IMG/VR virus record: IMGVR_UViG_3300044638_005715 | Location: 39,398-103,397 of that record | Length of the DNA stretch: 64,000 nt | Direction: 5' to 3' (one strand) | From: a virus | Taxonomy: Duplodnaviria > Heunggongvirae > Uroviricota > Caudoviricetes | Part shown: piece by piece, positions 21,247-44,485 of the stretch | Layout of the letters: the number at the start of each line of letters is the position of its first letter | Position numbering within the stretch: position 1 is the first letter of the stretch | Translations under genes and position numbers: made by a program | The notes under the pieces: generated by a model | The model's database searches: none | What the model was told of the DNA's origin: nothing | What the model saw: only the letters and a program-made list of their open reading frames with translations

Positions 21247-21774
21247 ATGAGACAAGACAAAATATCTAATTTTATGCAATTGGCTTTTACAATTGCTAAT
21301 AGGTCCCCAGACCCAAAAACTAAATGTGGTTCAATAATAACAGATAATCGTGGAAGAATCATAGGATCGGGCTATAATGGAATGCCCCGAGATACTGATG
21401 AAGAAGCATTTCCATGGGAACGCGGCGAAGGGCAAGAAGACCCATTATCCAAGTACCCATATGTACACCACGCGGAAAAAAATGCCATTCTAAATTGTGT
21501 TGTTACGCCACATTATATTGGCGGTGCAATTTGTTATGTTAATGGCAAATGTTGCTTTAGATGTTTAAATGACCTATGGCAATTTGGAATTCATACAGTA
21601 TATCAGGGCAATGTATTACCCAGAATGGTTGACGATAATCATAAAAAAATTATTGATCGCATTATATCTAAAACGGGTATTAATATTATCAACGTAGATT
21701 GTTCCATATATAATTGGTATGAAGACATCATGAGGCAGCAAAATGAGTATTTTCGACAAGAGAACAGCCTTTAA
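21247..21774 (+). CDS. dCMP deaminase
   Basis: HHAEKNAIL and CCFRCLN zinc motifs (HAE...CxxC) of deoxycytidylate deaminases. Confidence 0.7.
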   Translation: MRQDKISNFMQLAFTIANRSPDPKTKCGSIITDNRGRIIGSGYNGMPRDTDEEAFPWERGEGQEDPLSKYPYVHHAEKNAILNCVVTPHYIGGAICYVNGKCCFRCLNDLWQFGIHTVYQGNVLPRMVDDNHKKIIDRIISKTGINIINVDCSIYNWYEDIMRQQNEYFRQENSL

Positions 21775-23674
21775 GCCCTTTGAATATCCTGATGTTATTA
21801 AATTTGTGGATGCTATAAATCACAGTTATTGGCTTCACTCGGAATGGAATTTCATTTCTGACATACAGGATTTTAACACAAAATTAAGTGAGAAGGAAAA
21901 AAATGCAATAAAAAATGCATTATTGGCCATATCTCAAATAGAGGTTAGTGTTAAAAGCTTTTGGGGCAAATTACATGACACATTACCAAAACCAGAATTT
22001 AATGCTGTTGGTGCCACATTTGCGGAATCTGAGTGTTTCGATAACCAAACAGAAGTGTTAACATCTGATGGTTGGATTAAATTTGAGGAATTATCAAATC
22101 TTCATGAAGTGGCACAGTATGATATTGATACCAAACACATAACATTTGAAAAGCCACTAGAAGTAATAAAGAAACCATATAATGGAAAAATGCATATTTA
22201 CCAGGGGAGAAGGACGGACTTATGTGTGACTCCAAACCATGAATTATTACTAATAAATCCACACAGCAAAAAAATCAATAAGAAAAAATCAATAAGCGGT
22301 GCTTGGGGAAGAAACTTTTATTATCCTAGCTCTGGATATGGTGTCGGCACATTAGAATTTACAGATATTGACAGATTGTTAATAGCCATTCAGGCCGATG
22401 GATCTTTATACGGTGCATGTCCAAGTGGTACTGGTAGAAAAGATTTTTGTTTTGAGTTATCTAAAAATAGAAAAATAAAGAGAATAAAATATATACTTCA
22501 AAAACTACAAATAAATTATACAGAATCCATAAGATCTAGTAATAATCATACTATTATTAGTGGTGTATTACCAGATTATATTGATGTGGACAAGATAAAG
22601 AACTTTGACTATATTGATGTCACAAAAATATCACCGGAATTTTGTAGGAATTTTATTGAAGAATTATTAAATTGGGATGCCTCATTAAAAACATATTATA
22701 ATTCAAATGAAAAAGCTGTTGATAAAGTTCAAATCATAGCAACTCTCGGGGGATTTACATGCTCCAAAGGTATCAATAGAACCAAAGAGCAAAACATGTT
22801 AAGAAAAAACCCAGACGGAAACATTAGAAAATCATCTAAAACTCAATATTCTGTAAATATAACAAACACAGACAAAATTGTTTATCCACATAGAAAAGAA
22901 ATAGATTATGATGATATGGTATATTGTGTTACAATGTCCAAGGGAACAGTTGTTACTAGAAGGGGATCTAGTGTTTCTATACAAGGTAATTGTAGACACG
23001 AAAGGGCTTATAGCCACTTGTTAGAAGTATTAGATCTTAATCATGATTTTGAGATTCTATTACAGAATCCAGTAATTCAGGGCCGAGTAGATTATTTAAC
23101 TAAATATCTTAAAGGGGCCGCCGATAATAATAAAGAAGCATATACATTAACACTTACTTTATTTTCCCTTTTCATTGAGAATGTTAGTTTATTCAGCCAA
23201 TTTGCAATTATTAAATCATTTAACAAATATAAGAATGTGTTGAAGGACATAGACAATGTTGTGCAAGCAACACAACAGGAAGAACAGCTACACGCTAAGT
23301 TTGGGGCCTACATTGTTAATCAAATTAAATTAGAGTATCCTGAGTGGTTCGATGAAGAATTTTATGCCAAAATTAAAAGGGCCTGCCACAAAGCTTATGA
23401 TGCCGAGTCCAAGATTATTGATTGGATTTTTGAATTAGGCGATTTAGAATTTATAACAGCAAAACAAATTAAAGAATTTATTAAGAATAGGTTTAATCTA
23501 TCATTAGATATGATTGGTTGCGATCCTGTTTTTGATATTGATTCAGAGATTATTAAACAGATGAAATGGTTTGATGAGGAAATATATACTACAAATAATA
23601 TAGATTTCTTCAATAAGAAAAGTACAAATTATAGTAAAAAGATTGATTCTATTAATTCAGGGGATTTATTTTAA
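21743..23674 (+). CDS. nrdB: ribonucleotide reductase small subunit NrdB interrupted by an intein
   Basis: Extein FAESE|...|CRHERAYSHLL restores the E-x-x-H iron ligands. C-terminal DFFNKKSTNYSK is the R1-binding tail. Internal LLIAIQADGS matches LAGLIDADG. Confidence 0.75.
   Translation: MSIFDKRTAFKPFEYPDVIKFVDAINHSYWLHSEWNFISDIQDFNTKLSEKEKNAIKNALLAISQIEVSVKSFWGKLHDTLPKPEFNAVGATFAESECFDNQTEVLTSDGWIKFEELSNLHEVAQYDIDTKHITFEKPLEVIKKPYNGKMHIYQGRRTDLCVTPNHELLLINPHSKKINKKKSISGAWGRNFYYPSSGYGVGTLEFTDIDRLLIAIQADGSLYGACPSGTGRKDFCFELSKNRKIKRIKYILQKLQINYTESIRSSNNHTIISGVLPDYIDVDKIKNFDYIDVTKISPEFCRNFIEELLNWDASLKTYYNSNEKAVDKVQIIATLGGFTCSKGINRTKEQNMLRKNPDGNIRKSSKTQYSVNITNTDKIVYPHRKEIDYDDMVYCVTMSKGTVVTRRGSSVSIQGNCRHERAYSHLLEVLDLNHDFEILLQNPVIQGRVDYLTKYLKGAADNNKEAYTLTLTLFSLFIENVSLFSQFAIIKSFNKYKNVLKDIDNVVQATQQEEQLHAKFGAYIVNQIKLEYPEWFDEEFYAKIKRACHKAYDAESKIIDWIFELGDLEFITAKQIKEFIKNRFNLSLDMIGCDPVFDIDSEIIKQMKWFDEEIYTTNNIDFFNKKSTNYSKKIDSINSGDLF
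22034..22990 (+). mobile_element. intein (319 aa, LAGLIDADG homing-endonuclease domain) within nrdB
   Basis: Starts at Cys (CFDNQ...) and ends ...SIQGN followed by a +1 Cys; penultimate residue is Gly rather than His. Confidence 0.65.
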
Positions 23675-32284: not shown

Positions 32285-33733
32285 ATGAAAGATTTAGCTA
32301 TAGAAAGGGCCATGCTGGCCTCATTGTGTCAATATGGACATGATGTTTTATTAGATTGTAGTTTTTTAACATCTGATCATTTTAATGAAAATAATCAAAT
32401 ATTATTTCATTGTATTAAATCCTGCCTAGATAGTGGTATGAATGTAGATATTACATCTATACTATCAAAAGCACAGGATCTAGGATATGATAAAATAATA
32501 TGCACAGAGGATGAAGTATCATATATAAGATCATTATTTAATTTGCCAGTTGTTAAGAAAAACATTCCATATTATTATGAAAAGCTAATTAAGATAGATA
32601 TTGCTCAAAAATTAAGGCAAAAATTAAAAAGGTCTTTAGAAGAAGTCGATAATATTAATGGTACTGAATCTATTAATGATATATTAGGTATTATAGAAAG
32701 GCCATTCTTTGAAATAACAAGTGAACTTCATAATACAAGTAATAATGTAGAATCAATAGGCAGCGATATATATGAGTATATTGAAAAACTAAAAGATAAT
32801 GATGGGGCCCCTATTGGAATACCATCACCTTTTGCTGCTTATAATCAAGCTATAGGAGGCGGCCATAGAAGAAAGTGTGTAGATTTGATTGGGGCCAGAA
32901 GTAAGGTTGGTAAAAGTCTATATGCTAACGCTACAGCATTACATGTTGCTAAAAATTTGGGAATTCCTGTGTTATATTTAGATACGGAAATGGATAAGCA
33001 GGATCAACAAACACGTATTTTAGCAAACTTAGCAGAAATTACCATGGATGATTTAACTACTGGTAAATTTGCGGAAAGTGACGATGCACTCAATAGAATT
33101 GACAATGCTGCCAAAACATTAGAAAAAATACCCTACCATTATATTAATATTTCTGGACAAAGTTTTGATACTATATTATCTATAATGAGAAGGTGGATTC
33201 ATCAACATGTGGGAGTAAATGATGAAGGGTCTACTAATGATTGTTTAATAATTTATGACTATTTGAAATTAATGAGTTCTGATTCTATTAGTGATAATTT
33301 ACAAGAATATCAGGCTCTAGGATTTCAAATTACAGCATTGCATAATTTTTGCGTCAAATATGATGTACCCTGTTTAACATTCGTCCAATTAAATAGAGAC
33401 GGAATCACTAAGAAAAGCACTGACGTAATATCGGGATCTGATAGGATTTTATGGTTATGCACATCTTTTTCTATTTTCAGCATAAAAAGTGATGAAGAAC
33501 AGGCAGATGATAGGGCCAAGGGCATGAAAAAACCATTTAATAGAAAATTAGATCCTATTGTAGCAAGACATGGTGGATGTATGGATGAGGGTGATTATAT
33601 TAATATTATGATGGATGGACAATATGGGCGATTGACTCAGGGCCCAACTAGGAATAATCTAGAATCATTTATAAGGGAAAAAGACAAGGGTTTTGTACAT
33701 GATAAGCAACAACCAAATTTCTCTAATATCTAA
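32285..33733 (+). CDS. dnaB: replicative DNA helicase DnaB
   Basis: Walker A GARSKVGKS, DTEMD (SLEMS-like), 482 aa. Confidence 0.75.
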   Translation: MKDLAIERAMLASLCQYGHDVLLDCSFLTSDHFNENNQILFHCIKSCLDSGMNVDITSILSKAQDLGYDKIICTEDEVSYIRSLFNLPVVKKNIPYYYEKLIKIDIAQKLRQKLKRSLEEVDNINGTESINDILGIIERPFFEITSELHNTSNNVESIGSDIYEYIEKLKDNDGAPIGIPSPFAAYNQAIGGGHRRKCVDLIGARSKVGKSLYANATALHVAKNLGIPVLYLDTEMDKQDQQTRILANLAEITMDDLTTGKFAESDDALNRIDNAAKTLEKIPYHYINISGQSFDTILSIMRRWIHQHVGVNDEGSTNDCLIIYDYLKLMSSDSISDNLQEYQALGFQITALHNFCVKYDVPCLTFVQLNRDGITKKSTDVISGSDRILWLCTSFSIFSIKSDEEQADDRAKGMKKPFNRKLDPIVARHGGCMDEGDYINIMMDGQYGRLTQGPTRNNLESFIREKDKGFVHDKQQPNFSNI

Positions 33734-34730
33734 AAAATTAATTGAAAATTTAAATATTATATTGGAACATTTTGAGATAGAATATAGCGAAACTAATACG
33801 AGGTTCTTTTTCTCATGCCCAGCACATAACGGAGATAATAATAATGCCTGCACAATATATAAAAATACAGGGGTATGGAATTGCCATACGGCATTGTGTC
33901 ATGAAAAATACAAAAAAACTATAATAGGTTTTATTAGGGGCGTATTATGTTCTCGATTAGACAAAGATATAAGTTTTTTGGATTCTGTATCTTATGGGGC
34001 TAATCTTGTTGGATTAGATATAAAAAGTGACATAGATTTAGTAGATTTTAATAAGCAGCAGAAACTAGCCAACTATAATAAATTATATGATATTTTCATG
34101 AAAACAAATGATGGTGTCGGAGAGCCAATACATGATAATATATTAGAAGTGATAAAAATACCATCGGCATATTACATAAGAAGGGGTTATACAGAGGCTA
34201 TTCTAAGAAAATTTAATGTTGGTGATTGTTATGATAGATCTAACCCAATGTTTAATAGGGCCGTTGTCCCTATATATGATGTTAATAAAAATTATGTTGG
34301 ATGTTCTGCTAGGGCCACCACAGAAGGTTATAAGCCAAAATGGAAAAATACAGAAGGTATGCTAAAAACCAATTATATTTATGGTTTAGATCAAGCATAT
34401 GATGAAATTAAAAGAACTGGTGTTATTTTCCTTGTAGAGGGGCCCGGAGATTTGTGGAGAATGCATGAAGCAAACTATAATAACACTGGGGCTTTATTCG
34501 GTGTCGCACTAACGGAGGCTCAACTAATTTTATTAGAAAGCCTTCCAATTTCTGATATTATATTAGCTACAGATTCTGATAAGGCGGGTAATGAAGCGGC
34601 CGAAAAAATTAAAAAACAACTTCAAAGAAAATTTAATGTAAGAAGACTTTTGACAAACTATAAAGATATCGGCGAAAATCAATCTGATAAATTAAAGGAG
34701 ATAATTGATAAAGTATGGTTAAAATTTTAG
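33693..34730 (+). CDS. DnaG-type DNA primase (zinc finger plus TOPRIM)
   Basis: CPAHNGDNNNAC...C..C zinc-binding; TOPRIM LVEGPGDLWRMHE and DSDKAGNEAAEK. Confidence 0.7.
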   Translation: MYMISNNQISLISKKLIENLNIILEHFEIEYSETNTRFFFSCPAHNGDNNNACTIYKNTGVWNCHTALCHEKYKKTIIGFIRGVLCSRLDKDISFLDSVSYGANLVGLDIKSDIDLVDFNKQQKLANYNKLYDIFMKTNDGVGEPIHDNILEVIKIPSAYYIRRGYTEAILRKFNVGDCYDRSNPMFNRAVVPIYDVNKNYVGCSARATTEGYKPKWKNTEGMLKTNYIYGLDQAYDEIKRTGVIFLVEGPGDLWRMHEANYNNTGALFGVALTEAQLILLESLPISDIILATDSDKAGNEAAEKIKKQLQRKFNVRRLLTNYKDIGENQSDKLKEIIDKVWLKF

Positions 34731-35515
34731 CTTTTGCTGGGGCGAAACAATCGGGCAAAAATACATGTAGTAATTTTCTGCATGGATTCCAATTAAAATC
34801 TTATAATGTTATAGATAATTTCTATATTCTTAATGATGGACAATTAATAACAGAAAATAAAATTGATGGAAATACCTCTCAAAAGGGCCTGCTTGATGTA
34901 AATAGAAAAGATGATGAATTTAGTGAATGGGCTTCGGAAGATATGTGGCCCCTAATTAAAAACTATTCATTTGCTGATGCATTAAAATCACTCTGTATAC
35001 ACTTATTTAATATCCCTTATAATTGTGTTTATGGCACTGATGAAGAAAAAAACACTATTATACCGTGGCTATTATGGGAAAATATGCCTGGAATATTGGC
35101 TTGTGAAAATCATAATTTAACAGATGAGCAATTAGCCTTATCGGGTTTGCAATATCATAAATCAGGTCCAATGACTGCCAGAGAATTTATGCAATTTTTT
35201 GGTACTGATATTATGAGGAAAATGTATGAAAATATTTGGTGTGATAAACTAATTAAGGACATTAAAAGCGAAGATCCTGGCATTGCCGTTATTTCAGATT
35301 GTAGATTTCGTAATGAATGCGAATATATCAAATCACATGGTGGCAAAATTATTCATTTGACTCGACGACCATTTCAAGACGGCCATAAGAGTGAAAATGA
35401 TTTAGTTGGTTATAATGGATTTGATGGTGTTATAGATAATGAAAATATGAATATTGGTGATTCTTGCGATGAATTATTAAAAATTATTCAATCATGGGGG
35501 TGGATGGGATGCTAG
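34715..35515 (+). CDS. deoxynucleoside monophosphate kinase (T4 gp1-like)
   Basis: MVKILAFAGAKQSGKNTCSNFL resembles the T4 dNMP kinase N-terminus MKLIFLSGVKRSGKDTTADFI. Confidence 0.65.
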   Translation: MVKILAFAGAKQSGKNTCSNFLHGFQLKSYNVIDNFYILNDGQLITENKIDGNTSQKGLLDVNRKDDEFSEWASEDMWPLIKNYSFADALKSLCIHLFNIPYNCVYGTDEEKNTIIPWLLWENMPGILACENHNLTDEQLALSGLQYHKSGPMTAREFMQFFGTDIMRKMYENIWCDKLIKDIKSEDPGIAVISDCRFRNECEYIKSHGGKIIHLTRRPFQDGHKSENDLVGYNGFDGVIDNENMNIGDSCDELLKIIQSWGWMGC

Positions 35516-37479
35516 TACCATTCTTTCGTTCTTCTAGCCTATCCCAAATTAAATACTGTGAGATGAGCTACTTTATTACTTATAATTTAGGATATCAACA
35601 GGAGACACAAAAAAAAGCTAATTTAGGCACTATAACCCATAAAGTATTTGAGATATTAGCATCATGTAAAAAGAAAACTCAGGATAAAGTTACTCCACGC
35701 ATGTCGATTATGGATGATGAGTTGGGTAAAATAAGTTTCACAATTTCATCACTGTATACATACGACTTTGTATTAGATTTATTGAAAAGATCTTTTGATC
35801 ACTATTCCAAAGCACACGTTGGAACAGAATATAGTGATGAAGATTATAAATTTTGCCTGAATATGGTTAATAATGGCATTTTACATGCTAATGGGTTATT
35901 TGATCCCAGAAATAGAAATATAGTTGCCACAGAGCCAAAATTCGATATAACAATAGAAGAAGATTGGGCTAAATTTAAGATAGACGGAGAGGAAAAATAT
36001 TTATCGATTAAGGGATCTATCGATTTAGTAACTAAAATAAATGATGATACTATTGAAATGATAGATTGGAAAGCATTACCTGTGGAAACACCTATACCAA
36101 CTAGGTATGGATGGACCACAATGGGTGATATTACTATTGGTGAAATAATCTTTGATAAAGATGGCAAGCAAACTAGGGTTATAGGTAAATCAACACCTAA
36201 GTATAATTATTGTTATAAATTTATATTTGATGATACAACCGAAGTTATATCTGATGAAGATCATATATGGCACATGAGTAATGGAATAAATAAAACCACA
36301 AAAGAAATAATTCCTGGTGATCAAATATCAGTAACAAAACCATTAGAAATTGAAGATACTGATCTACCTATAGACCCATATGTACTTGGATATTGGCTTG
36401 GAAATGGTAGAAATAGATGCGGTGCAATTACATCATCTGATGATTTTGTATTTGATGAGATTGAAAGACGCGGATATACTCTTGGTTGGGACACAGAGAA
36501 GGACAATGATAAAATTAAGACTAGAACAGTAATTGGGCTTACAACAAAACTCAGATCATTGAGTCTTTTGCACAACAAACATATTCCTATGATATATCTT
36601 CGAGCATCATTTAGGCAAAGACTAGATTTGCTTAGAGGTTTAATGGATTCTGATGGGAATGCTAATCCCGCTAGAAAGCAAGCTGTTTTTACATCAACCG
36701 AGAAGACTTTATCAAACGATGTCATGCAGCTTTTATTAGGGCTTGGCCAAAGAGTAAATCAGGGTGATATTACAAGATCAACTAATTTTTCAGAGAATGT
36801 ACAGGTATATCCTCTACATTTTCGCCCACAACATAATATTAACCCATTCTTGCTTCCAAGAAAAGCAGATAAAATTAACCTAGAATGGGGGCCCGGAAAA
36901 TCTAACGTTAGAAGGATAAAAAACATAGAAAAGCTTAATGTTATTAGAAAGGTGCAATGTATTATGGTTGATAGTCCATCTAATACATATTTATGCACAC
37001 ATAATATGATCCCAACACATAATACTGGTCAAAGAAAAAATTGGGCCACAGGGAAAATTAAAACATATGAAGATTTGCATGATGACATACAATTACTTCT
37101 TTATCATTATGCTATTAGAAAATTATATCCAGAATATAAGCAAATTATACCTAGTATTTTCTTTCTAAGGGACGGTGGCCCATTTAGTTTATGCTTTGAT
37201 GAAAGGGATGATGAGAAATTTATTAAGAAACTAAGAGAAAATTTTGAATATATAACCAATAATAAGATGCCGAAACCAATTAATAATTGGAGGAATGATT
37301 TTAGGTGTCAAAAACTATGTACATTCTATAAAAATAAGTGGGATGGCACTAATACAAGGATGTGTAATTATGTTGAAAATCATATTAAAACATATGGTAT
37401 AGATGTTACACAAAAGCAATTAAAGAAAGAAGATTTTACATTGGGATATTATGCAGCACCAGGGCAAGTGAGTAAATAA
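35494..37479 (+). CDS. Cas4/RecB-family PD-(D/E)xK exonuclease (4-Cys) interrupted by an intein
   Basis: Exteins join as ...IEMIDWK|TGQRK, giving the RecB DYKTG motif. QLLLYHYA is the QhxxY motif. One N-terminal Cys plus C-terminal C..C......C. Confidence 0.6.
   Translation: MGVDGMLVPFFRSSSLSQIKYCEMSYFITYNLGYQQETQKKANLGTITHKVFEILASCKKKTQDKVTPRMSIMDDELGKISFTISSLYTYDFVLDLLKRSFDHYSKAHVGTEYSDEDYKFCLNMVNNGILHANGLFDPRNRNIVATEPKFDITIEEDWAKFKIDGEEKYLSIKGSIDLVTKINDDTIEMIDWKALPVETPIPTRYGWTTMGDITIGEIIFDKDGKQTRVIGKSTPKYNYCYKFIFDDTTEVISDEDHIWHMSNGINKTTKEIIPGDQISVTKPLEIEDTDLPIDPYVLGYWLGNGRNRCGAITSSDDFVFDEIERRGYTLGWDTEKDNDKIKTRTVIGLTTKLRSLSLLHNKHIPMIYLRASFRQRLDLLRGLMDSDGNANPARKQAVFTSTEKTLSNDVMQLLLGLGQRVNQGDITRSTNFSENVQVYPLHFRPQHNINPFLLPRKADKINLEWGPGKSNVRRIKNIEKLNVIRKVQCIMVDSPSNTYLCTHNMIPTHNTGQRKNWATGKIKTYEDLHDDIQLLLYHYAIRKLYPEYKQIIPSIFFLRDGGPFSLCFDERDDEKFIKKLRENFEYITNNKMPKPINNWRNDFRCQKLCTFYKNKWDGTNTRMCNYVENHIKTYGIDVTQKQLKKEDFTLGYYAAPGQVSK
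36073..37023 (+). mobile_element. intein (317 aa, LAGLIDADG x2) in the nuclease active site; apparent Ala1 start
   Basis: ALPVETPIPTRYGW resembles Hint block A. LGYWLGNGRN and LLRGLMDSDGNAN resemble LAGLIDADG motifs. Ends ...IPTHN followed by a +1 Thr. Confidence 0.55.
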
Positions 37480-37947
37480 ATGAAAGAATTAACATTAGAA
37501 GAAAAATCAGTAAATTATGATACGTTTCGCCACATTGAAAGGGTTAGAAATTTAATAAATACATGTATTAGGAATCTGTTAACCAGGGCCGAAAAACATG
37601 ACCAATCTAAACTTGAAGATCCAGAAGTTTCTTATTTTTTAAAATATACAGCACTCTTAAAGACATGTACATATAATAGTGATCAATATAAATCTTATTT
37701 ACAAGAGATGAAACCAGCATTAGATCATCATTATGCTAATAATTCTCATCATCCAGAGCACTATAAGGATGGAATTAATGATATGAATTTATTAGATTTA
37801 ATGGAGATGTTATGTGATTGGAAAGCTGCCAGCGAGAGACATAATGACGGAAATATTCGTAAATCAATAGAAGTCAATGTACAACGATTTGGAATATCGC
37901 CACAATTAACACGCATTTTAGAAAATACAGTAGATTTATTATCATGA
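37480..37947 (+). CDS. hypothetical His-rich protein (possible HD-like hydrolase)
   Basis: HHYANNSHHPEHY cluster; weak. Confidence 0.35.
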   Translation: MKELTLEEKSVNYDTFRHIERVRNLINTCIRNLLTRAEKHDQSKLEDPEVSYFLKYTALLKTCTYNSDQYKSYLQEMKPALDHHYANNSHHPEHYKDGINDMNLLDLMEMLCDWKAASERHNDGNIRKSIEVNVQRFGISPQLTRILENTVDLLS

Positions 37948-39122: not shown

Positions 39123-39750
39123 TTTAAATATTGAAGATTGTAAATCACAGATTGGTCAAGACGTATGGATAACTAAAAAATTAAATGAAATGGATTTTAA
39201 TCCAAATGATTTTTACTTTGTTGATATTGGTGCTTATGATGGTTTGCACCTATCCAACACGTATGCATTTGAAAAAAATCTAGGGGCAAAGGGAGTGTGC
39301 GTAGAATGTAATCCACTTATGATCCAAGGGTTTAAATATAATAGACCAAATTCTGATTTATGCACTAAGGCCATTTATACAGAAAGCGGACATAAATTAA
39401 AGTTTTCACTAAATGATTGCAATTCGTGCATTGATAATAATGGAGATTATGAAGTAGAGACCATAAGTATTAATGATTTATTAACAACATATAACGCCCC
39501 TCGAAATATAACATATATTAATTTAGATATTGAGGGATTAGAACCAGAAATTCTTGCCACTTTTGATTTTAGTAAATGGAATGTTTTAACATGGACAATT
39601 GAACATAATCATGTAGAAGCAAATAAGAATAAAATATTAGATATTCTACTCAAGCATAATTATATGGTTAAATTACATGAATGGGATATCTTTGCCTACA
39701 AAGATTTCTTAGAGCCCATTTATTATGTTGATGGTGTCCGCGTAAAATAA
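39115..39750 (+). CDS. FkbM-family SAM-dependent methyltransferase
   Basis: FVDIGAYDGLH (G-A-x-D-G) motif; start could also be 39097. Confidence 0.5.
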   Translation: MFNLNIEDCKSQIGQDVWITKKLNEMDFNPNDFYFVDIGAYDGLHLSNTYAFEKNLGAKGVCVECNPLMIQGFKYNRPNSDLCTKAIYTESGHKLKFSLNDCNSCIDNNGDYEVETISINDLLTTYNAPRNITYINLDIEGLEPEILATFDFSKWNVLTWTIEHNHVEANKNKILDILLKHNYMVKLHEWDIFAYKDFLEPIYYVDGVRVK

Positions 39751-39764
39751 TAAGGAAAAAAATA

Positions 39765-41228
39765 ATGAAAGAAATTAAGTGGGCCCCAAACCATATGCAC
39801 TCTAGTTATAGTTTGTTAGATGGTTTTGCTAAACCAGCAGACATTGCTAAAAGATGTAAAGAATATGGATATAAATCGGCGGCTATAACAGACCATGGAA
39901 ATATAGCTGGGTGTGTTCAACATTTTACAGCCTGTAAAAAAGAGGGCATTAAACCAATATTGGGTTGTGAATTCTATTTTAGTAAGGACGCGGGCCTTAG
40001 AGATTCTACCAATAAAGAGTTGAGCCACGTTGTAATATTATCTAAAAATTTGAATGGATGGAATGAATTGATAGGGTGTGTTTCTGAAAGTAACTTGCCG
40101 GAAAATTTTTACTTTAAGCCGCGTATTGATTATACTATCATGAAAAAATTTCTTGGTAACAATAATCACATATGTATTACGGGACACCCAGGAACAGAAC
40201 TATCAAATGCCTTATTTGAAGATATGAAATTCTATAGATCAAAATCTGTAGAAGATGCTAGAAAATTTATAAAGCCAAACTGGAAAGAATGTGCCTTAGA
40301 AGTGATAGAAAAACACCTAGAAATATTTGGTGATAATCTCTATATTGAAATTCAGCTTATTGATAAAGATAATTTACCAGCTAGTCTTGTAATAGCCGAA
40401 TGTTTAAGAGAGATTGTTGCCGAGTCTAATGGTAAATTAAAGCCAATAGCTACTGCTGATAGTCACTATGTAGATAGAAAAGATGCTGAATCACAAAGGA
40501 TTTTGTTAGCATCGGCCCTGAATAAAACAATTCCTGGTATAATGAATGATTTAAGAAATAATATTGATGTTCCTCTAGGAACATTCTTTATTTCAGATAA
40601 TTATCATATACCTACGCTGGGTGAAATGATAGAAAATCACACCGTGGAAGAATTATTAAATGCATATTTAGCTGCTGAATCTTGCGAAGAGTATGATATT
40701 ACGAACGCACCGCTTCTACCAAAATTTAATGTTGATGATGAATTTACATATCTTTCTGAATTATGTAATAAGGGATGGAAAAATAAGATTGAGCATTTAT
40801 TGACGGATGAAAATCGCCACATATATAAGGAAAGACTAGATAGGGAATTAGGAGTCATTCAAGAGGCGGGACTTTCTGGTTATTTCCTTATTGTTCAAGA
40901 CATTATGGAATTTGTTAGGTCTAAAAATTGGATTCCTACAACACCGGGCAGAGGATGTTTTTTACCAGATACTAATGTAAAAATGTCAAATGGATCATAT
41001 TGTCCAATATCAATGATTGAGTCAGGAGATAAAGTAATAGATTGTTACAAAAATGAACAAGAAGTATATGCAACATTAGAATATGACATTGATGAGGATA
41101 TTATAGAAATTGAATTTATTAATAATAAAATAGTGAGATGTACAAAAGATCATAAATTTTTAACAAAAAATCGTGGATGGGTACAAGCTCAATATCTTAA
41201 TGATGAAGATGATATTGTTGAGGTTTAA
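39765..41228 (+). CDS. dnaE: DNA polymerase III alpha (DnaE) N-terminal fragment (PHP domain) fused to split-intein N half
   Basis: PHP motif MHSSYSLLDG...ITDHGN. Extein ends ...PTTPGRG, where DnaE continues GSAAGS. The following 90 aa starting CFLPDTNVKM resemble the N-terminal blocks of a split intein (Int-N), then a stop. Confidence 0.75.
   Translation: MKEIKWAPNHMHSSYSLLDGFAKPADIAKRCKEYGYKSAAITDHGNIAGCVQHFTACKKEGIKPILGCEFYFSKDAGLRDSTNKELSHVVILSKNLNGWNELIGCVSESNLPENFYFKPRIDYTIMKKFLGNNNHICITGHPGTELSNALFEDMKFYRSKSVEDARKFIKPNWKECALEVIEKHLEIFGDNLYIEIQLIDKDNLPASLVIAECLREIVAESNGKLKPIATADSHYVDRKDAESQRILLASALNKTIPGIMNDLRNNIDVPLGTFFISDNYHIPTLGEMIENHTVEELLNAYLAAESCEEYDITNAPLLPKFNVDDEFTYLSELCNKGWKNKIEHLLTDENRHIYKERLDRELGVIQEAGLSGYFLIVQDIMEFVRSKNWIPTTPGRGCFLPDTNVKMSNGSYCPISMIESGDKVIDCYKNEQEVYATLEYDIDEDIIEIEFINNKIVRCTKDHKFLTKNRGWVQAQYLNDEDDIVEV
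40956..41225 (+). mobile_element. split intein N-terminal half (Int-N, 90 aa)
   Basis: Cys1, CFLPDTNV...G (block A), TKDHKF (block B, TxxH). Confidence 0.65.
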
Positions 41229-41310: not shown

Positions 41311-42159
41311 ATGGGCTCAATATCGTTAAATGATTTTAGATTATTAAATTATAATTCAAATGGTATATCAAATTTTAAACTAATAAATGGAATATGTACT
41401 AAATGTAATTCTGATTTTTCGTATTCTACAATATATAAATTTATTAGAAATAGAATAAATAAAATAAATAAAAAACACTTATGGGATACGTGTCAAAAAT
41501 GTTGGCATTTAATTAATACTGTTGAAGATCAATACTGGATGGAAAACAATTCAAAAATCCAGTCAAAAATACAGTCTTCCGAGGAACAAAAAAGAAAAAA
41601 TTCTATAGGTGTTTCTAAATCGTGGACACATGATAGAAGGAAAAAAACTTCTGAATGGTTAAAAGAAAGATGGAAAAATGATGACAAATTTCGTAAAAAG
41701 GCATTAAATAATTTACAATGGACACAAATTAATGATAATAGGCGAGATAAAATATTAAAAGGAAGTTTAGGAAAGGGTGGTCTCAAAGGAATATATAATG
41801 ATATATATTATGATAGTGCGTTAGAATTATCTTACATTTTATATTGTATAGATAATCAAATTGAAATTATAAGATATAATATACAACCTATACATTATTT
41901 AGATGAAAATAAGAAAGATAGGGTATATATTCCAGATTTTATAATAAATAATGATACAATTATAGAAATTAAAGGATATGGAATATATTATCAAAAAAAC
42001 TATGAGAGATCGATATTAAAAATTGAATCATTAAAATCATGGTCTAGTAAAAATGGATTTAAATATCAAATAATATTTAATACAGAAGACATATTAAAAA
42101 AAAACTATAAAAAGGCTAGAAAAATACATCATGAAAATAAAAACAAAAAAGATTTTTAG
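41311..42159 (+). CDS. free-standing PD-(D/E)xK endonuclease with N-terminal zinc-finger/NUMOD-like repeats (putative homing endonuclease) between the dnaE halves
   Basis: VYIPDFIINNDTIIEIKGYG (PD...ExK); CTKCNSD...CQKCWH; overlaps the Int-C start by 29 nt. Confidence 0.55.
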   Translation: MGSISLNDFRLLNYNSNGISNFKLINGICTKCNSDFSYSTIYKFIRNRINKINKKHLWDTCQKCWHLINTVEDQYWMENNSKIQSKIQSSEEQKRKNSIGVSKSWTHDRRKKTSEWLKERWKNDDKFRKKALNNLQWTQINDNRRDKILKGSLGKGGLKGIYNDIYYDSALELSYILYCIDNQIEIIRYNIQPIHYLDENKKDRVYIPDFIINNDTIIEIKGYGIYYQKNYERSILKIESLKSWSSKNGFKYQIIFNTEDILKKNYKKARKIHHENKNKKDF

Positions 42160-42235
42160 ATACAGTGGAAAGGTATATGATCTATCTGTTGAAAATACAA
42201 GTTGTTATAATGTAGAGGGTTTAGGAGTTCATAAT
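42131..42235 (+). mobile_element. split intein C-terminal half (Int-C)
   Basis: Ends HN followed by a +1 Ser. Confidence 0.65.
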
Positions 42236-44485
42236 TCTGCTGCTGGATGTCTAATATCATATTTAATCGGAATTACTAATATTGATCCATTAAAGCACGA
42301 TTTGATTTTCGAGCGATTTTATTCGGCGGCAAGAAAAGGTAGTTTGCCAGATATTGATCTTGATGTGCCCGCAGAGCATAGAGAGGATGTGATCGAATAC
42401 ATTAAGCAAAAGTATGGAAATGAAAATGTATCACAAATGGTCACATTTAATAGTTTGATGGGTAGATCTGCATTAAAAGAGGTACTAAAGGTTTATAATG
42501 CTGTATCATTTATAGAAATGAATGAAATGACTAAGGATATACCAAATGAAGCTTCTATTGCTGACGACCTACAAGAAAGTGGCGAAACATCTATCATTAT
42601 GTGGGCCCTGAAAAATCGTGCCTCTAAACTTGAGAAGTGGTGTAAAATAGATGAGCAGGGTAATTTAACTGGGGATTGTGCCGATTATTTTAGAATGGCA
42701 ATTAATATAGAGGGCACAAAAAAATCACAAGCTAAACATGCGGCCGGTATTATTATTTCGGCTTCTCCATTAAAAAATGTTTGCCCAATGGTAAGGGATA
42801 AAGAGGGGCTCCCAGTAGCTGGTTTTGAAATGAATGATTTGGAACTATTGGGCCATGTTAAGTTCGATATATTGGGTGTAGATATTCTAAGTAAAATTAT
42901 TAAAATATGTGAAAGATGCAATATTAGTATTGATGAAATGCATAAATTTAATGATAAAAAAACATGGGACCTTATTAGTAGTGGTGATGTAATTGGCATA
43001 TTCCAATTAGAAAAGCAAAAGCGTTGGGCAAAGAAACTCAAGCCGCAAACTATTGAGCATCTTTCTGCCCTTATTGCTATTATTAGGCCGGGAGTTGCTG
43101 ATGTTATTGTCGATGGCAAATCTATGACCGAACACTATATTGATAGAAAAAATGGTGATGAAGATATTACATATGAATTTCCATGTCTAGAGCCCATACT
43201 AGAAAATACATATGGTATTATGATTTATCAAGAGCAGGCATTAAGAATAGCATCGGAAATCGCAGGTTTTAATTTAAAAGAGGCAGATGCACTTAGAAAA
43301 GCAATCGGCAAGAAATTAGTTGATAAAATGGCCGAGTTGAAAACAAAATTTATTGATGGATGTGTTAATAATGAAAAGCTAAACCTAGAAGACTCCACAA
43401 GATTATTCGAGTGGATTGAGAAGTCTCAAAAATATCTGTTTAATGCAAGCCATAGTTTTTCTTATGCTTATAATGCTTATTATTCGGCATTTTGTAAGGC
43501 AAATAATATATATGATAGGTATCCAGTATTTTATGAGATTTATTTAGAGCATAGCAAAAGAAAGCAAGATTCACTTCATGAAATTAGGTCTATGGTAAAT
43601 AATGCAAAATTAAATGGATTTGAAGTTAGGGCTCCTGACTTATGTAATTTTAATTTAAGCTTTACACTTTCAGAAGATTTATCTACGATTTATTTTGGTG
43701 TATCGAGTGTTAAGGATGTTGGAGAAAAAGAATGTAGTAAAATACTAAATATATTTAATGAATTAGAAGATTCATGCAATATGAATTGGATGCAAGTTTT
43801 AACACAAATATGTGATAAGATTAATAAAAAAGCAGTTGAAGCTCTCATATCTGTAGGGGCCCTTAATGGTCCAAAAAATAAGGTTTCAAGATTAAAAATG
43901 CTTTATGAGTATGGTTTTTGGAGAGAACTAACGAAAAATGAACAGAAATTCATTAAAGAAAATATGATAAATGGATCTTTAAAAGATAATGTAAAGAATT
44001 TAATAAATAATGCAAAAATACAAGCTAAAAGATTATCTGCTGTAACATCTATTTATAAATCTCTTGAATCGCCACCTTATGGTATATCTGATAATATAGA
44101 AATTATATCTCAATTAGAATCTAAATATTTAGGAATATCACTTTCATGTGCAAAGAGTGATTTTTTAATACCGGAAGTAAATACTACATGTAGAGAGGTG
44201 GCATTAAATTCTTGTAGGAATTATGATATTAGTATAGGTGTTGAAATTAAATCATATCATGAGCACATTATAAACAATAAGAATAGTAAAAATCATGGAT
44301 TAACGATGGCATTTCTATCATGTGAAGATAACACTGGTGTTTTGGATAATATAATATTATTTCCTGAAGAATATAATCGTTTTAAAGATTTGCTTTTTGA
44401 TGGAAATACAATTATAATTGTTGGTGACGCTTCAAAAAATCGCGATGGCTCACTTATTGTAAAAAATATGATATCTACTATATAG
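42131..44485 (+). CDS. dnaE: split-intein C half (35 aa) fused to the DnaE C-terminal fragment
   Basis: MKIKTKKIFRYSGKVYDLSVENTSCYNVEGLGVHN parallels the Npu DnaE Int-C MIKIATRKYLGKQNVYDIGVERDHNFALKNGFIASN. The +1 Ser begins SAAGCLISYLIGITNIDP, the DnaE motif. Confidence 0.75.
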   Translation: MKIKTKKIFRYSGKVYDLSVENTSCYNVEGLGVHNSAAGCLISYLIGITNIDPLKHDLIFERFYSAARKGSLPDIDLDVPAEHREDVIEYIKQKYGNENVSQMVTFNSLMGRSALKEVLKVYNAVSFIEMNEMTKDIPNEASIADDLQESGETSIIMWALKNRASKLEKWCKIDEQGNLTGDCADYFRMAINIEGTKKSQAKHAAGIIISASPLKNVCPMVRDKEGLPVAGFEMNDLELLGHVKFDILGVDILSKIIKICERCNISIDEMHKFNDKKTWDLISSGDVIGIFQLEKQKRWAKKLKPQTIEHLSALIAIIRPGVADVIVDGKSMTEHYIDRKNGDEDITYEFPCLEPILENTYGIMIYQEQALRIASEIAGFNLKEADALRKAIGKKLVDKMAELKTKFIDGCVNNEKLNLEDSTRLFEWIEKSQKYLFNASHSFSYAYNAYYSAFCKANNIYDRYPVFYEIYLEHSKRKQDSLHEIRSMVNNAKLNGFEVRAPDLCNFNLSFTLSEDLSTIYFGVSSVKDVGEKECSKILNIFNELEDSCNMNWMQVLTQICDKINKKAVEALISVGALNGPKNKVSRLKMLYEYGFWRELTKNEQKFIKENMINGSLKDNVKNLINNAKIQAKRLSAVTSIYKSLESPPYGISDNIEIISQLESKYLGISLSCAKSDFLIPEVNTTCREVALNSCRNYDISIGVEIKSYHEHIINNKNSKNHGLTMAFLSCEDNTGVLDNIILFPEEYNRFKDLLFDGNTIIIVGDASKNRDGSLIVKNMISTI

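Follow-up and report, generated by a model that had tools for sequence, protein, structure and literature searches.

Can an intein splice when its first residue is an alanine, and if so, by which route? The question is raised by a nuclease gene of a virus of the class Caudoviricetes (IMG/VR record IMGVR_UViG_3300044638_005715), of which we analyzed positions 39,398 to 103,397, a stretch of 64,000 nucleotides (nt) referred to here as the window. An earlier reading of the letters alone, made with no database search (the sequence-only reading), had described an in-frame insert in a Cas4/RecB-like nuclease as an intein beginning with Ala1, and had taken this first residue to imply a non-canonical splicing mechanism. 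Our analysis leads to the conclusion, to which we assign a probability of about 0.88, that we are dealing with a class 3 intein which is competent to splice, carries a LAGLIDADG homing-endonuclease domain and is lodged between the motif III lysine and the threonine of a phage nuclease. The features concerned are given below; precursor residues are numbered from the ATG at 35494, as in the sequence-only reading (the likely true start would shift them by -5), intein residues are numbered from Ala1, and a dot within a sequence marks the insertion point.

35494 to 37479, plus strand: Cas4/RecB-like PD-(D/E)XK nuclease precursor with intein, 661 amino acids (aa); Pfam PDDEXK_1 and LAGLIDADG_3.
35494 to 36072, plus strand: N-extein, residues 1-193, ending with motif II (GSIDLV) and motif III (D191-W-K193); PDDEXK_1 over residues 14-193.
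36073 to 37023, plus strand: predicted class 3 intein, 317 aa, from Ala1 to His316-Asn317; match to 6RIX, 6RIY and 6BS8, AlphaFold2 model, Foldseek and gap in homologues.
36073 to 36114, plus strand: block A (ALPVETPIPTRYGW), aligned with ALALxTPLPTPxGW of 6RIX and 6BS8; Ala1 is not a nucleophile.
36244 to 36285, plus strand: block B (VISDEDHIWHMSNG), with His64 at B:10 (36262-36264) and Trp66 at B:12 (36268-36270).
36361 to 36897, plus strand: LAGLIDADG homing-endonuclease domain, about residues 97-275; Pfam LAGLIDADG_3 and Foldseek.
36949 to 36996, plus strand: block F (KVQCIMVDSPSNTYLC), with Cys296 at F:4 (36958-36960), the predicted initiating nucleophile, a role taken from PMC7664689 and PMC3196547.
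37006 to 37023, plus strand: block G (MIPTHN), with Thr315 at G:5, then His316 and Asn317.
37024 to 37479, plus strand: C-extein, starting with Thr+1 (37024-37026) and the Gly of K·TG, and containing QxxxY (QLLLY), C605, C609 and C624.

The limits of the insert are set by homologues which do not have it. The insert comprises precursor residues 194-510 (317 aa, nt 36073-37023) and separates the K from the T of an invariant D-W-K·T-G motif, in the context TIEMIDWK·ALPVETPIPTRYGW...NMIPTHN·TGQRKNW. Residue 194 is encoded by GCA (Ala, nt 36073-36075) and residue 510 by AAT (Asn, nt 37021-37023), which is followed by ACT (Thr), and the open reading frame (ORF) is unbroken over 1,986 nt; written as DNA, the intein-free site is ATAGATTGGAAA·ACTGGTCAAAGAAAAAATTGG. 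When the joined flanks (344 aa) were searched against 5.8 billion proteins, 1,379 proteins matched, the best 120 of which are 321-349 aa long and align over 92-99% of the query with 51-72% identity. In an alignment with 14 insert-free homologues, the sole large gap corresponds exactly to the 317-residue insert, while D191, K193, T511 and G512 are invariant. The insert-free proteins thus bridge the junction exactly as the sequence-only reading had proposed, in that removal of residues 194-510 joins IEMIDWK to TGQRK and restores the motif; the insertion does lie in a (D/E)xK·TG active site, which however reads DWK·TG here and not DYK·TG as first written. Nor is there room for the boundary to slide, K and N, compared across the junction, being different residues. 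Two other placements, an internal CTHN·M eight residues upstream and a nearby Cys or Ser start, were considered and rejected, since the insert-free homologues fix K193·A194 and N510·T511 and a methionine is no nucleophile. Finally, the precursor matches PDDEXK_1 with 41.8 bits over residues 14-193 only, whereas the protein spliced in silico reaches 62.2 bits (cut-off 22) in a continuous match over residues 14-276; together with the invariance of the core motifs, this bears out the assignment of the host protein as a Cas4/RecB-like nuclease.

Class 3 inteins have no nucleophile at position 1 and are recognized by a Trp-Cys-Thr (WCT) signature consisting of Trp B:12, Cys F:4 and Thr G:5, in which Cys F:4 starts the reaction as its nucleophile and provides the first branch point (PMC3196547, PMC7664689, PMC5050341). 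The full signature is present in the insert (Trp66, Cys296, Thr315), along with His64, the terminal His316-Asn317 pair and Thr+1 (Thr511); the C-terminal HN followed by Thr had also been seen by the sequence-only reading. A phmmer search of all PDB chains returned the class 3 DnaB mini-inteins 6RIX, 6RIY and 6BS8 as the best matches (E-values of 5e-19 to 2e-17). The alignment to 6RIX and 6BS8 runs end to end, residue 1 facing residue 1 and residue 317 facing the last residue, and pairs ALPVETPIPTRYGWTTMGD with ALALYTPLPTPTGWTTMGD, DEDHIW with DAAHQW, KVQCIMVD with PVRCVEVD and MIPTHN with MVPTHN; the insert is therefore an intein with a block A-like start, as had been suggested. Matches to metagenomic intein-bearing nucleases are stronger still, with E-values down to 1e-110, and such similarity lies far outside anything expected by chance. 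When the intein was aligned with its 120 nearest relatives in the database (the denominators of 116-120 given here and below are the numbers of these that align at the position concerned), His64 and Trp66 were found in 120 of 120, Cys296, Thr315 and Asn317 in 119 of 119, and His316 in 118 of 119, while position +1 was occupied by Thr in 113 relatives and by Ser in 6.

The structural comparison agrees with the alignments. An AlphaFold2 model of the intein, built with 46 sequences, has a mean predicted local distance difference test score (pLDDT) of 96.7 and a predicted template modelling score of 0.93. Foldseek searches of the PDB with this model retrieve the full-length intein endonucleases PI-SceI (E-value 9.5e-18), TliVMA, PI-PfuI and PI-PkoII, and the class 3 DnaB mini-inteins 6BS8 and 6RIX superpose on it with a target TM-score of 0.86-0.88, so that the splicing domain is predicted to have the HINT fold. 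On the grounds of the best PDB matches and of its homology to an intein at the same site of mycobacteriophage protein Catera gp206 (see below), the insert most likely belongs with the established class 3 inteins. No nearby Cys, Ser or Thr turned out to be the splice residue, and no testable feature marks the insert as a non-splicing domain.

Going by the homology to characterized class 3 inteins, splicing would proceed in four steps. In the first, the thiol of Cys296 (F:4), forming a triad with His64 (B:10) and Thr315 (G:5), would attack the carbonyl of the Lys193-Ala194 peptide bond, placing the N-extein on Cys296 as a thioester, i.e., a block F branched intermediate, with Ala1 chemically idle. 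The N-extein would then be moved to the hydroxyl of Thr511 (+1), giving the standard block G branched intermediate. Cyclization of Asn317, assisted by His316, would free the intein, and an O-to-N acyl shift would finally create the Lys-Thr bond, yielding a nuclease in which the DWKTG motif is intact and whose length is 344 aa, or 339 aa if counted from the likely start. The block F thioester route, known from relatives (PMC3196547, PMC7664689), is a prediction for this protein. Splicing would thus be non-canonical, as the sequence-only reading held, but the novelty it implied is not upheld, as the WCT motif marks the established class 3 route through Cys296: Ala1 reflects this mechanism and not a new one. 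Since the catalytic lysine of the unspliced precursor lies 317 residues from the rest of its motif, nuclease activity should depend on splicing.

The insertion site is already occupied by inteins in other phages. A tblastn search of 50,697 phage genomes detected homologous inteins, with similarity extending into the extein flanks, in several annotated nucleases, namely the Cas4/RecB-like exonucleases of Mycobacterium phages Traft412, Zeeculate, DiMaria and Dexes, those of Pseudomonas phage Rollin and Streptomyces phage Frankenweenie (the latter recorded as "Cas4 exonuclease and intron"), and cluster C1 mycobacteriophage proteins annotated as "HNH endonuclease"; related inteins were also found in large terminases and in one DnaB helicase. 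The insertion point is identical in Traft412 gp72 (VVDYK·GLDLDTKLPTP...MIPTHN·TG), Rollin (VFDLK·GLPLGT...FIPTHN·TG) and Catera gp206 (VELK·SLACSTPI...VPTHN·TQNS). In metagenomes, 456 proteins match the intein, and most of the best 120 are PD-(D/E)XK nucleases of 510-555 aa with the arrangement D-[WY]-K·G...THN·T-G. This agrees with published surveys: 40 RecB-like inteins of cluster C1 phages, assigned to class 3 by their WCT motif, are all inserted at one and the same point of the PD-(D/E)XK motif (Kelley et al., 2016; PMC5050341), and a 2025 survey counted 138 Cas4 exonuclease inteins of class 3 in motif III, that of ScoobyDoobyDoo lying in the RecB motif III "EFKT" (bioRxiv 10.1101/2025.01.02.630785). 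According to PMC3196547, which cites Tori and Perler (2011), Catera gp206 splices efficiently. The insertion site therefore represents an intein allele that has been catalogued before and of which one member has been shown by experiment to splice; what is new here is its host, an uncultured AT-rich marine phage.

Each of these relatives differs from the present intein in some respect. Catera gp206 and the other cluster C1 inteins share with it the class 3 WCT motif, the LAGLIDADG endonuclease, the position after the motif III lysine and before the threonine, and the THN end with Thr+1. On the other hand, Catera gp206 is only about 26% identical to our query over the whole precursor, belongs to a different and much shorter nuclease subfamily of a GC-rich actinobacteriophage, keeps the Asp of endonuclease motif 1 and aligns with Ser at position 1, where the query has Asn111 and Ala1. 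The Cas4 inteins of cluster A and other phages (Traft412 gp72, ScoobyDoobyDoo), Rollin and Frankenweenie have the same (D/E)-x-K·intein·T-G site, domain order and WCT and THN residues; identity to the query is 31-40% in the tblastn region (intein plus short flanks) and 32-35% between whole precursors, and they start with Gly1 and do not share the Asn of endonuclease motif 1, having Asp there. As to the mini-inteins of known structure, MsmDnaBi1 (6BS8) and MchDnaB1 (6RIX/6RIY) likewise start with Ala1-Leu2 and end with P-T-H-N, and the Cys124/His65/Thr143 triad of MchDnaB1 corresponds to Cys296/His64/Thr315 of the query, but these mycobacterial DnaB-b inteins lack an endonuclease domain, interrupt a helicase, are followed by Ser+1 and reside in bacterial chromosomes.

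The two LAGLIDADG-like motifs named by the sequence-only reading are indeed present in the endonuclease domain, at intein residues 105-114 (LGYWLGNGRN, nt 36385-36414) and 186-198 (LLRGLMDSDGNAN, nt 36628-36666; Asp194 intact), and Pfam LAGLIDADG_3 scores 26 bits, over its cut-off of 22.5. Foldseek relates the domain to I-DmoI, PI-SceI and PI-PfuI, and the model, with helices at 102-111 and 180-194, displays the two-motif alpha-beta-beta-alpha-beta-beta-alpha pseudo-dimer. An acidic residue at the end of the LAGLIDADG motif is found in motif 2 and is missing from motif 1, whose catalytic position 111 (36403-36405) is occupied by Asn, the relatives having Asp in 118 of 120 cases and Glu in one. 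These acidic residues bind the catalytic metals and, because Asn111 replaces one of them, the endonuclease is probably decaying, with no activity left or at most that of a nickase; to judge from what is reportedly seen with the I-CreI D20N and PI-SceI D218/D326 mutants, at least one strand would be expected to escape cleavage after a change of this type.

The guanine-plus-cytosine content (GC) of the intein is 0.34, and 0.22 at third codon positions (GC3), compared with 0.29-0.32 and 0.21-0.27, respectively, in the exteins. A recent horizontal arrival finds no support in base composition, since the rise in the sliding GC profile is confined to the endonuclease domain (0.36 vs. 0.31) and intein and exteins do not differ in GC3. 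The low identity to the nearest related intein (56%) and the match in GC and GC3 to the exteins point to long residence rather than recent arrival. With the catalytic Asp lost and a base composition like that of the host genome, this copy has probably been resident for a long time and has lost the ability to home efficiently. The intein is found in none of the best 120 of the 1,379 extein homologues, and occurs sporadically within the family, in fragments P0121, P0122, P0124, P0126, P0127, P0199 and P0227; the C-extein shows 91% identity between P0124, which carries the intein, and P0017, which does not. Such a presence/absence polymorphism, read from sequence comparison, is what a mobile element would be expected to produce, and the intein belongs to a mobile lineage homing into the conserved K·T site.

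Several observations weigh against an intein in full working order. The Pfam Intein_splicing match is weak (13-16 bits against a cut-off of 35.8); of the comparison with intein profiles that the sequence-only reading had called for, the class 3 PDB inteins were thus matched and the Pfam model hardly so, and this model seems to represent the present lineage poorly. Furthermore, three residues depart from those typical of the lineage, and each of the changes could lower the splicing rate: position 1 is Ala, against Gly in 115 of 116 close relatives and His in one; position 13 of block F is Asn304, against His in about half of the relatives; and position 60 (36250-36252) is Ser, against Cys in no fewer than 90% of the 45 relatives aligned. 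The Asn111 substitution in the endonuclease belongs to the same list. The change at position 1 is probably neutral, however, because this position is not catalytic in class 3 inteins.

Taken at their worst, these departures would describe a degenerating intein remnant, splicing poorly or not at all, which leaves the nuclease mostly as an inactive 76-kDa precursor in a gene heading for loss. We regard this as quite unlikely. Some decay has taken place, as the loss of the catalytic Asp and the changes at Ala1, Ser60 and Asn304 indicate, the closest related intein is only 56% identical, and a non-splicing class 3 intein is on record, the pseudogene Arth_1007 of Arthrobacter, which lacks Cys F:4 and His B:10 (PMC3196547). 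Unlike Arth_1007, however, the present intein keeps all the residues needed for class 3 splicing (His64, Trp66, Cys296, Thr315, His316, Asn317 and Thr+1); in addition, the ORF is intact over its whole length, the extein retains every invariant residue of its family, the model is of high confidence, and the agreement in GC3 between intein and exteins suggests long coexistence with a gene in use.

Ala1 would also be formally compatible, given the +1 nucleophile, with a class 2 intein of the Methanococcus jannaschii KlbA type, the first thought for an intein starting with Ala (PMC7664689), in which no block F intermediate is formed and the N-terminal splice junction is attacked by the +1 residue itself. 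Class 2 inteins share with the query Ala1 and the lack of an N-terminal nucleophile, but lack both the WCT motif and a nucleophilic Cys in block F. Both are present in the query, whose WCT motif is complete and strictly conserved, and the class 2 reading of Ala1 was discarded on this ground as highly improbable. Moreover, the nearest solved structures are class 3 and not MjaKlbA, no specific similarity of the query to KlbA emerged from the sequence (PDB phmmer) or fold (Foldseek) searches, Thr+1 would be a weak nucleophile for direct attack, and Catera gp206, the relative at the same site, has been assigned to class 3 and tested as such (PMC3196547).

That the Ala codon or the whole insert is an artifact (an assembly chimera, a sequencing error in codon 1 of a class 1 intein with Cys1 or Ser1, or a misplaced boundary) has next to no credit: the window is uncharacterized, metagenome-like sequence and GCA is one substitution from both GGA (Gly) and TCA (Ser), but an independent IMG/VR contig from another sample (L004, UViG_3300042337_000885), 99.8% identical over 3,761 nt (window 32494-36254), carries the same junction and the same Ala1, which is therefore not an assembly or sequencing error but the genuine first residue that had been read from the letters, no relative has Cys1 (Gly1, His1 or Ala1 being found, and Ser in Catera gp206), the boundary is fixed by the insert-free homologues, and reading frame, composition and synteny are continuous with an intein-free locus (L037).

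Returning to the class 3 intein, a second cysteine, Cys308 (36994-36996), is found in the sequence T-[YF]-L-C twelve residues past Cys296. It is kept in 117 of 120 inteins of the lineage, and neither Catera gp206 nor the class 3 inteins of DnaB have a counterpart. A role of Cys308 and position 60 in redox control or metal binding is possible.

As for the protein that the intein interrupts, the PD-(D/E)XK motifs are all retained, D177, D191-x-K193 and Q533xxxY537 being invariant in the alignment with the 14 homologues, as are T511, G512, C22, C605, C609 and C624. The four invariant cysteines, one N-terminal and three C-terminal, are reminiscent of the iron-sulfur cluster of Cas4 and AddB, although the C-terminal spacing C-x3-C-x14-C differs from the textbook Cas4 pattern. 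The extein matches PHROG 69 "exonuclease" (E-value 5.5e-18); tblastn of the spliced extein against the 50,697 deposited phage records gave no match at E-values up to 1e-5, and a profile search against the PDB gave one marginal match, 9IAB (E-value 0.23), over the VDxKTG motif. Its family, judged by these searches, is a large and so far uncultured group of marine phage nucleases of about 340 aa. The neighboring genes are replication genes (DnaB, primase, deoxynucleoside monophosphate (dNMP) kinase, YpsA-like, RNase T-like and DNA polymerase III alpha), and none of them matched a Cas family, in a survey that included no search for clustered regularly interspaced short palindromic repeats (CRISPR). 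Because of these neighbors, we consider the extein a phage RecB/Cas4-like exonuclease and not a CRISPR component. Locus L037, whose nuclease is 72% identical, is syntenic (DnaB, primase, dNMP kinase, nuclease, YpsA-like, RNase T-like). A DUF5662 gene (37480-37947, plus strand) lies between the nuclease and the YpsA/SLOG-like gene of the window and is missing from L037.

The first ATG of the nuclease ORF (35494) falls within the upstream dNMP-kinase gene. The true start is probably the ATG at 35509, giving a protein five residues shorter, because the homologues begin at the corresponding Met (MLVPFF...) and this ATG overlaps the TAG of the upstream gene. The overlap of the two genes (ATGCTAG) suggests translational coupling.

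With this intein, the class 3 allele at the Cas4/RecB site, documented mainly in actinobacteriophages, is extended to an AT-rich marine phage family with more than 1,300 metagenomic homologues. The finding supports published ideas according to which class 3 inteins are phage-borne and spread via conserved nucleotide-binding or active-site motifs. In practical terms, the 661-aa ORF should be annotated as a nuclease precursor with an intein and not as a fusion protein.

Two further intein-bearing loci were recognized in the window:

21743 to 23674, plus strand: ribonucleotide reductase (RNR) small-subunit gene with a second intein; insert about 22031-22987, residues 97-415; Ribonuc_red_sm matched in two stretches.
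39765 to 41228, 41311 to 42159 and 42131 to 44485, plus strand: DNA polymerase III alpha, two genes and an ORF between them; split intein.

The RNR intein (FAESE·CFDNQTEVLTSDGW...LLIAIQADGS...VSIQGN·CRHERAYS) starts with Cys1, is followed by Cys+1 and has Gly in place of His as its penultimate residue. It matches Pfam Intein_splicing weakly, with 21 bits, and has the appearance of a class 1 intein containing a LAGLIDADG domain. At the polymerase locus, the first gene ends in an 89-aa N-intein (TPGRG·CFLPDTNV...DDIVEV and stop, about nt 40959-41225) and the second starts with a 35-aa C-intein (MKIKTKK...GLGVHN·SAAGC, nt 42131-42235). When joined, the two halves score 40.4 bits with Intein_splicing, above the cut-off, and match the NrdJ-1 split intein 8UBS with an E-value of 4.5e-8; they are separated by an ORF of 282 aa in which a nuclease motif resembling TnsA/endonuclease I is present. 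To judge from its sequence, the locus resembles a "fractured gene" in which a split intein is combined with a free-standing endonuclease.

The window thus has three inteins, each of a different architecture, within 23 kb of replication and nucleotide-metabolism genes. One might see in this a phage lineage that is an intein hotspot with regulatory splicing or, in the Ala1/Asn304/Ser60 variant, an intein with unusual kinetics for protein engineering, but we hold either to be improbable. In the regulatory case, activation of the nuclease could be conditional on redox state or zinc via Cys296 and Cys308, as reported for the mycobacterial class 3 intein DnaBi1, and the endonuclease with Asn111 would then be kept for regulation and not for homing.

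The window as a whole has about 31% GC, carries nearly all its genes on one strand, among them rIIA-like, RNR, DnaB, primase, dNMP kinase and polymerase III alpha genes, and appears to be a segment of a large genome from an uncultured marine phage. A megablast search with 20 kb of it found no nucleotide match in deposited phage genomes. The polymerase III alpha part reaches no more than about 30% identity, and related contigs of up to 158 kb occur in marine metagenomes (IMG/VR, Tara-type).

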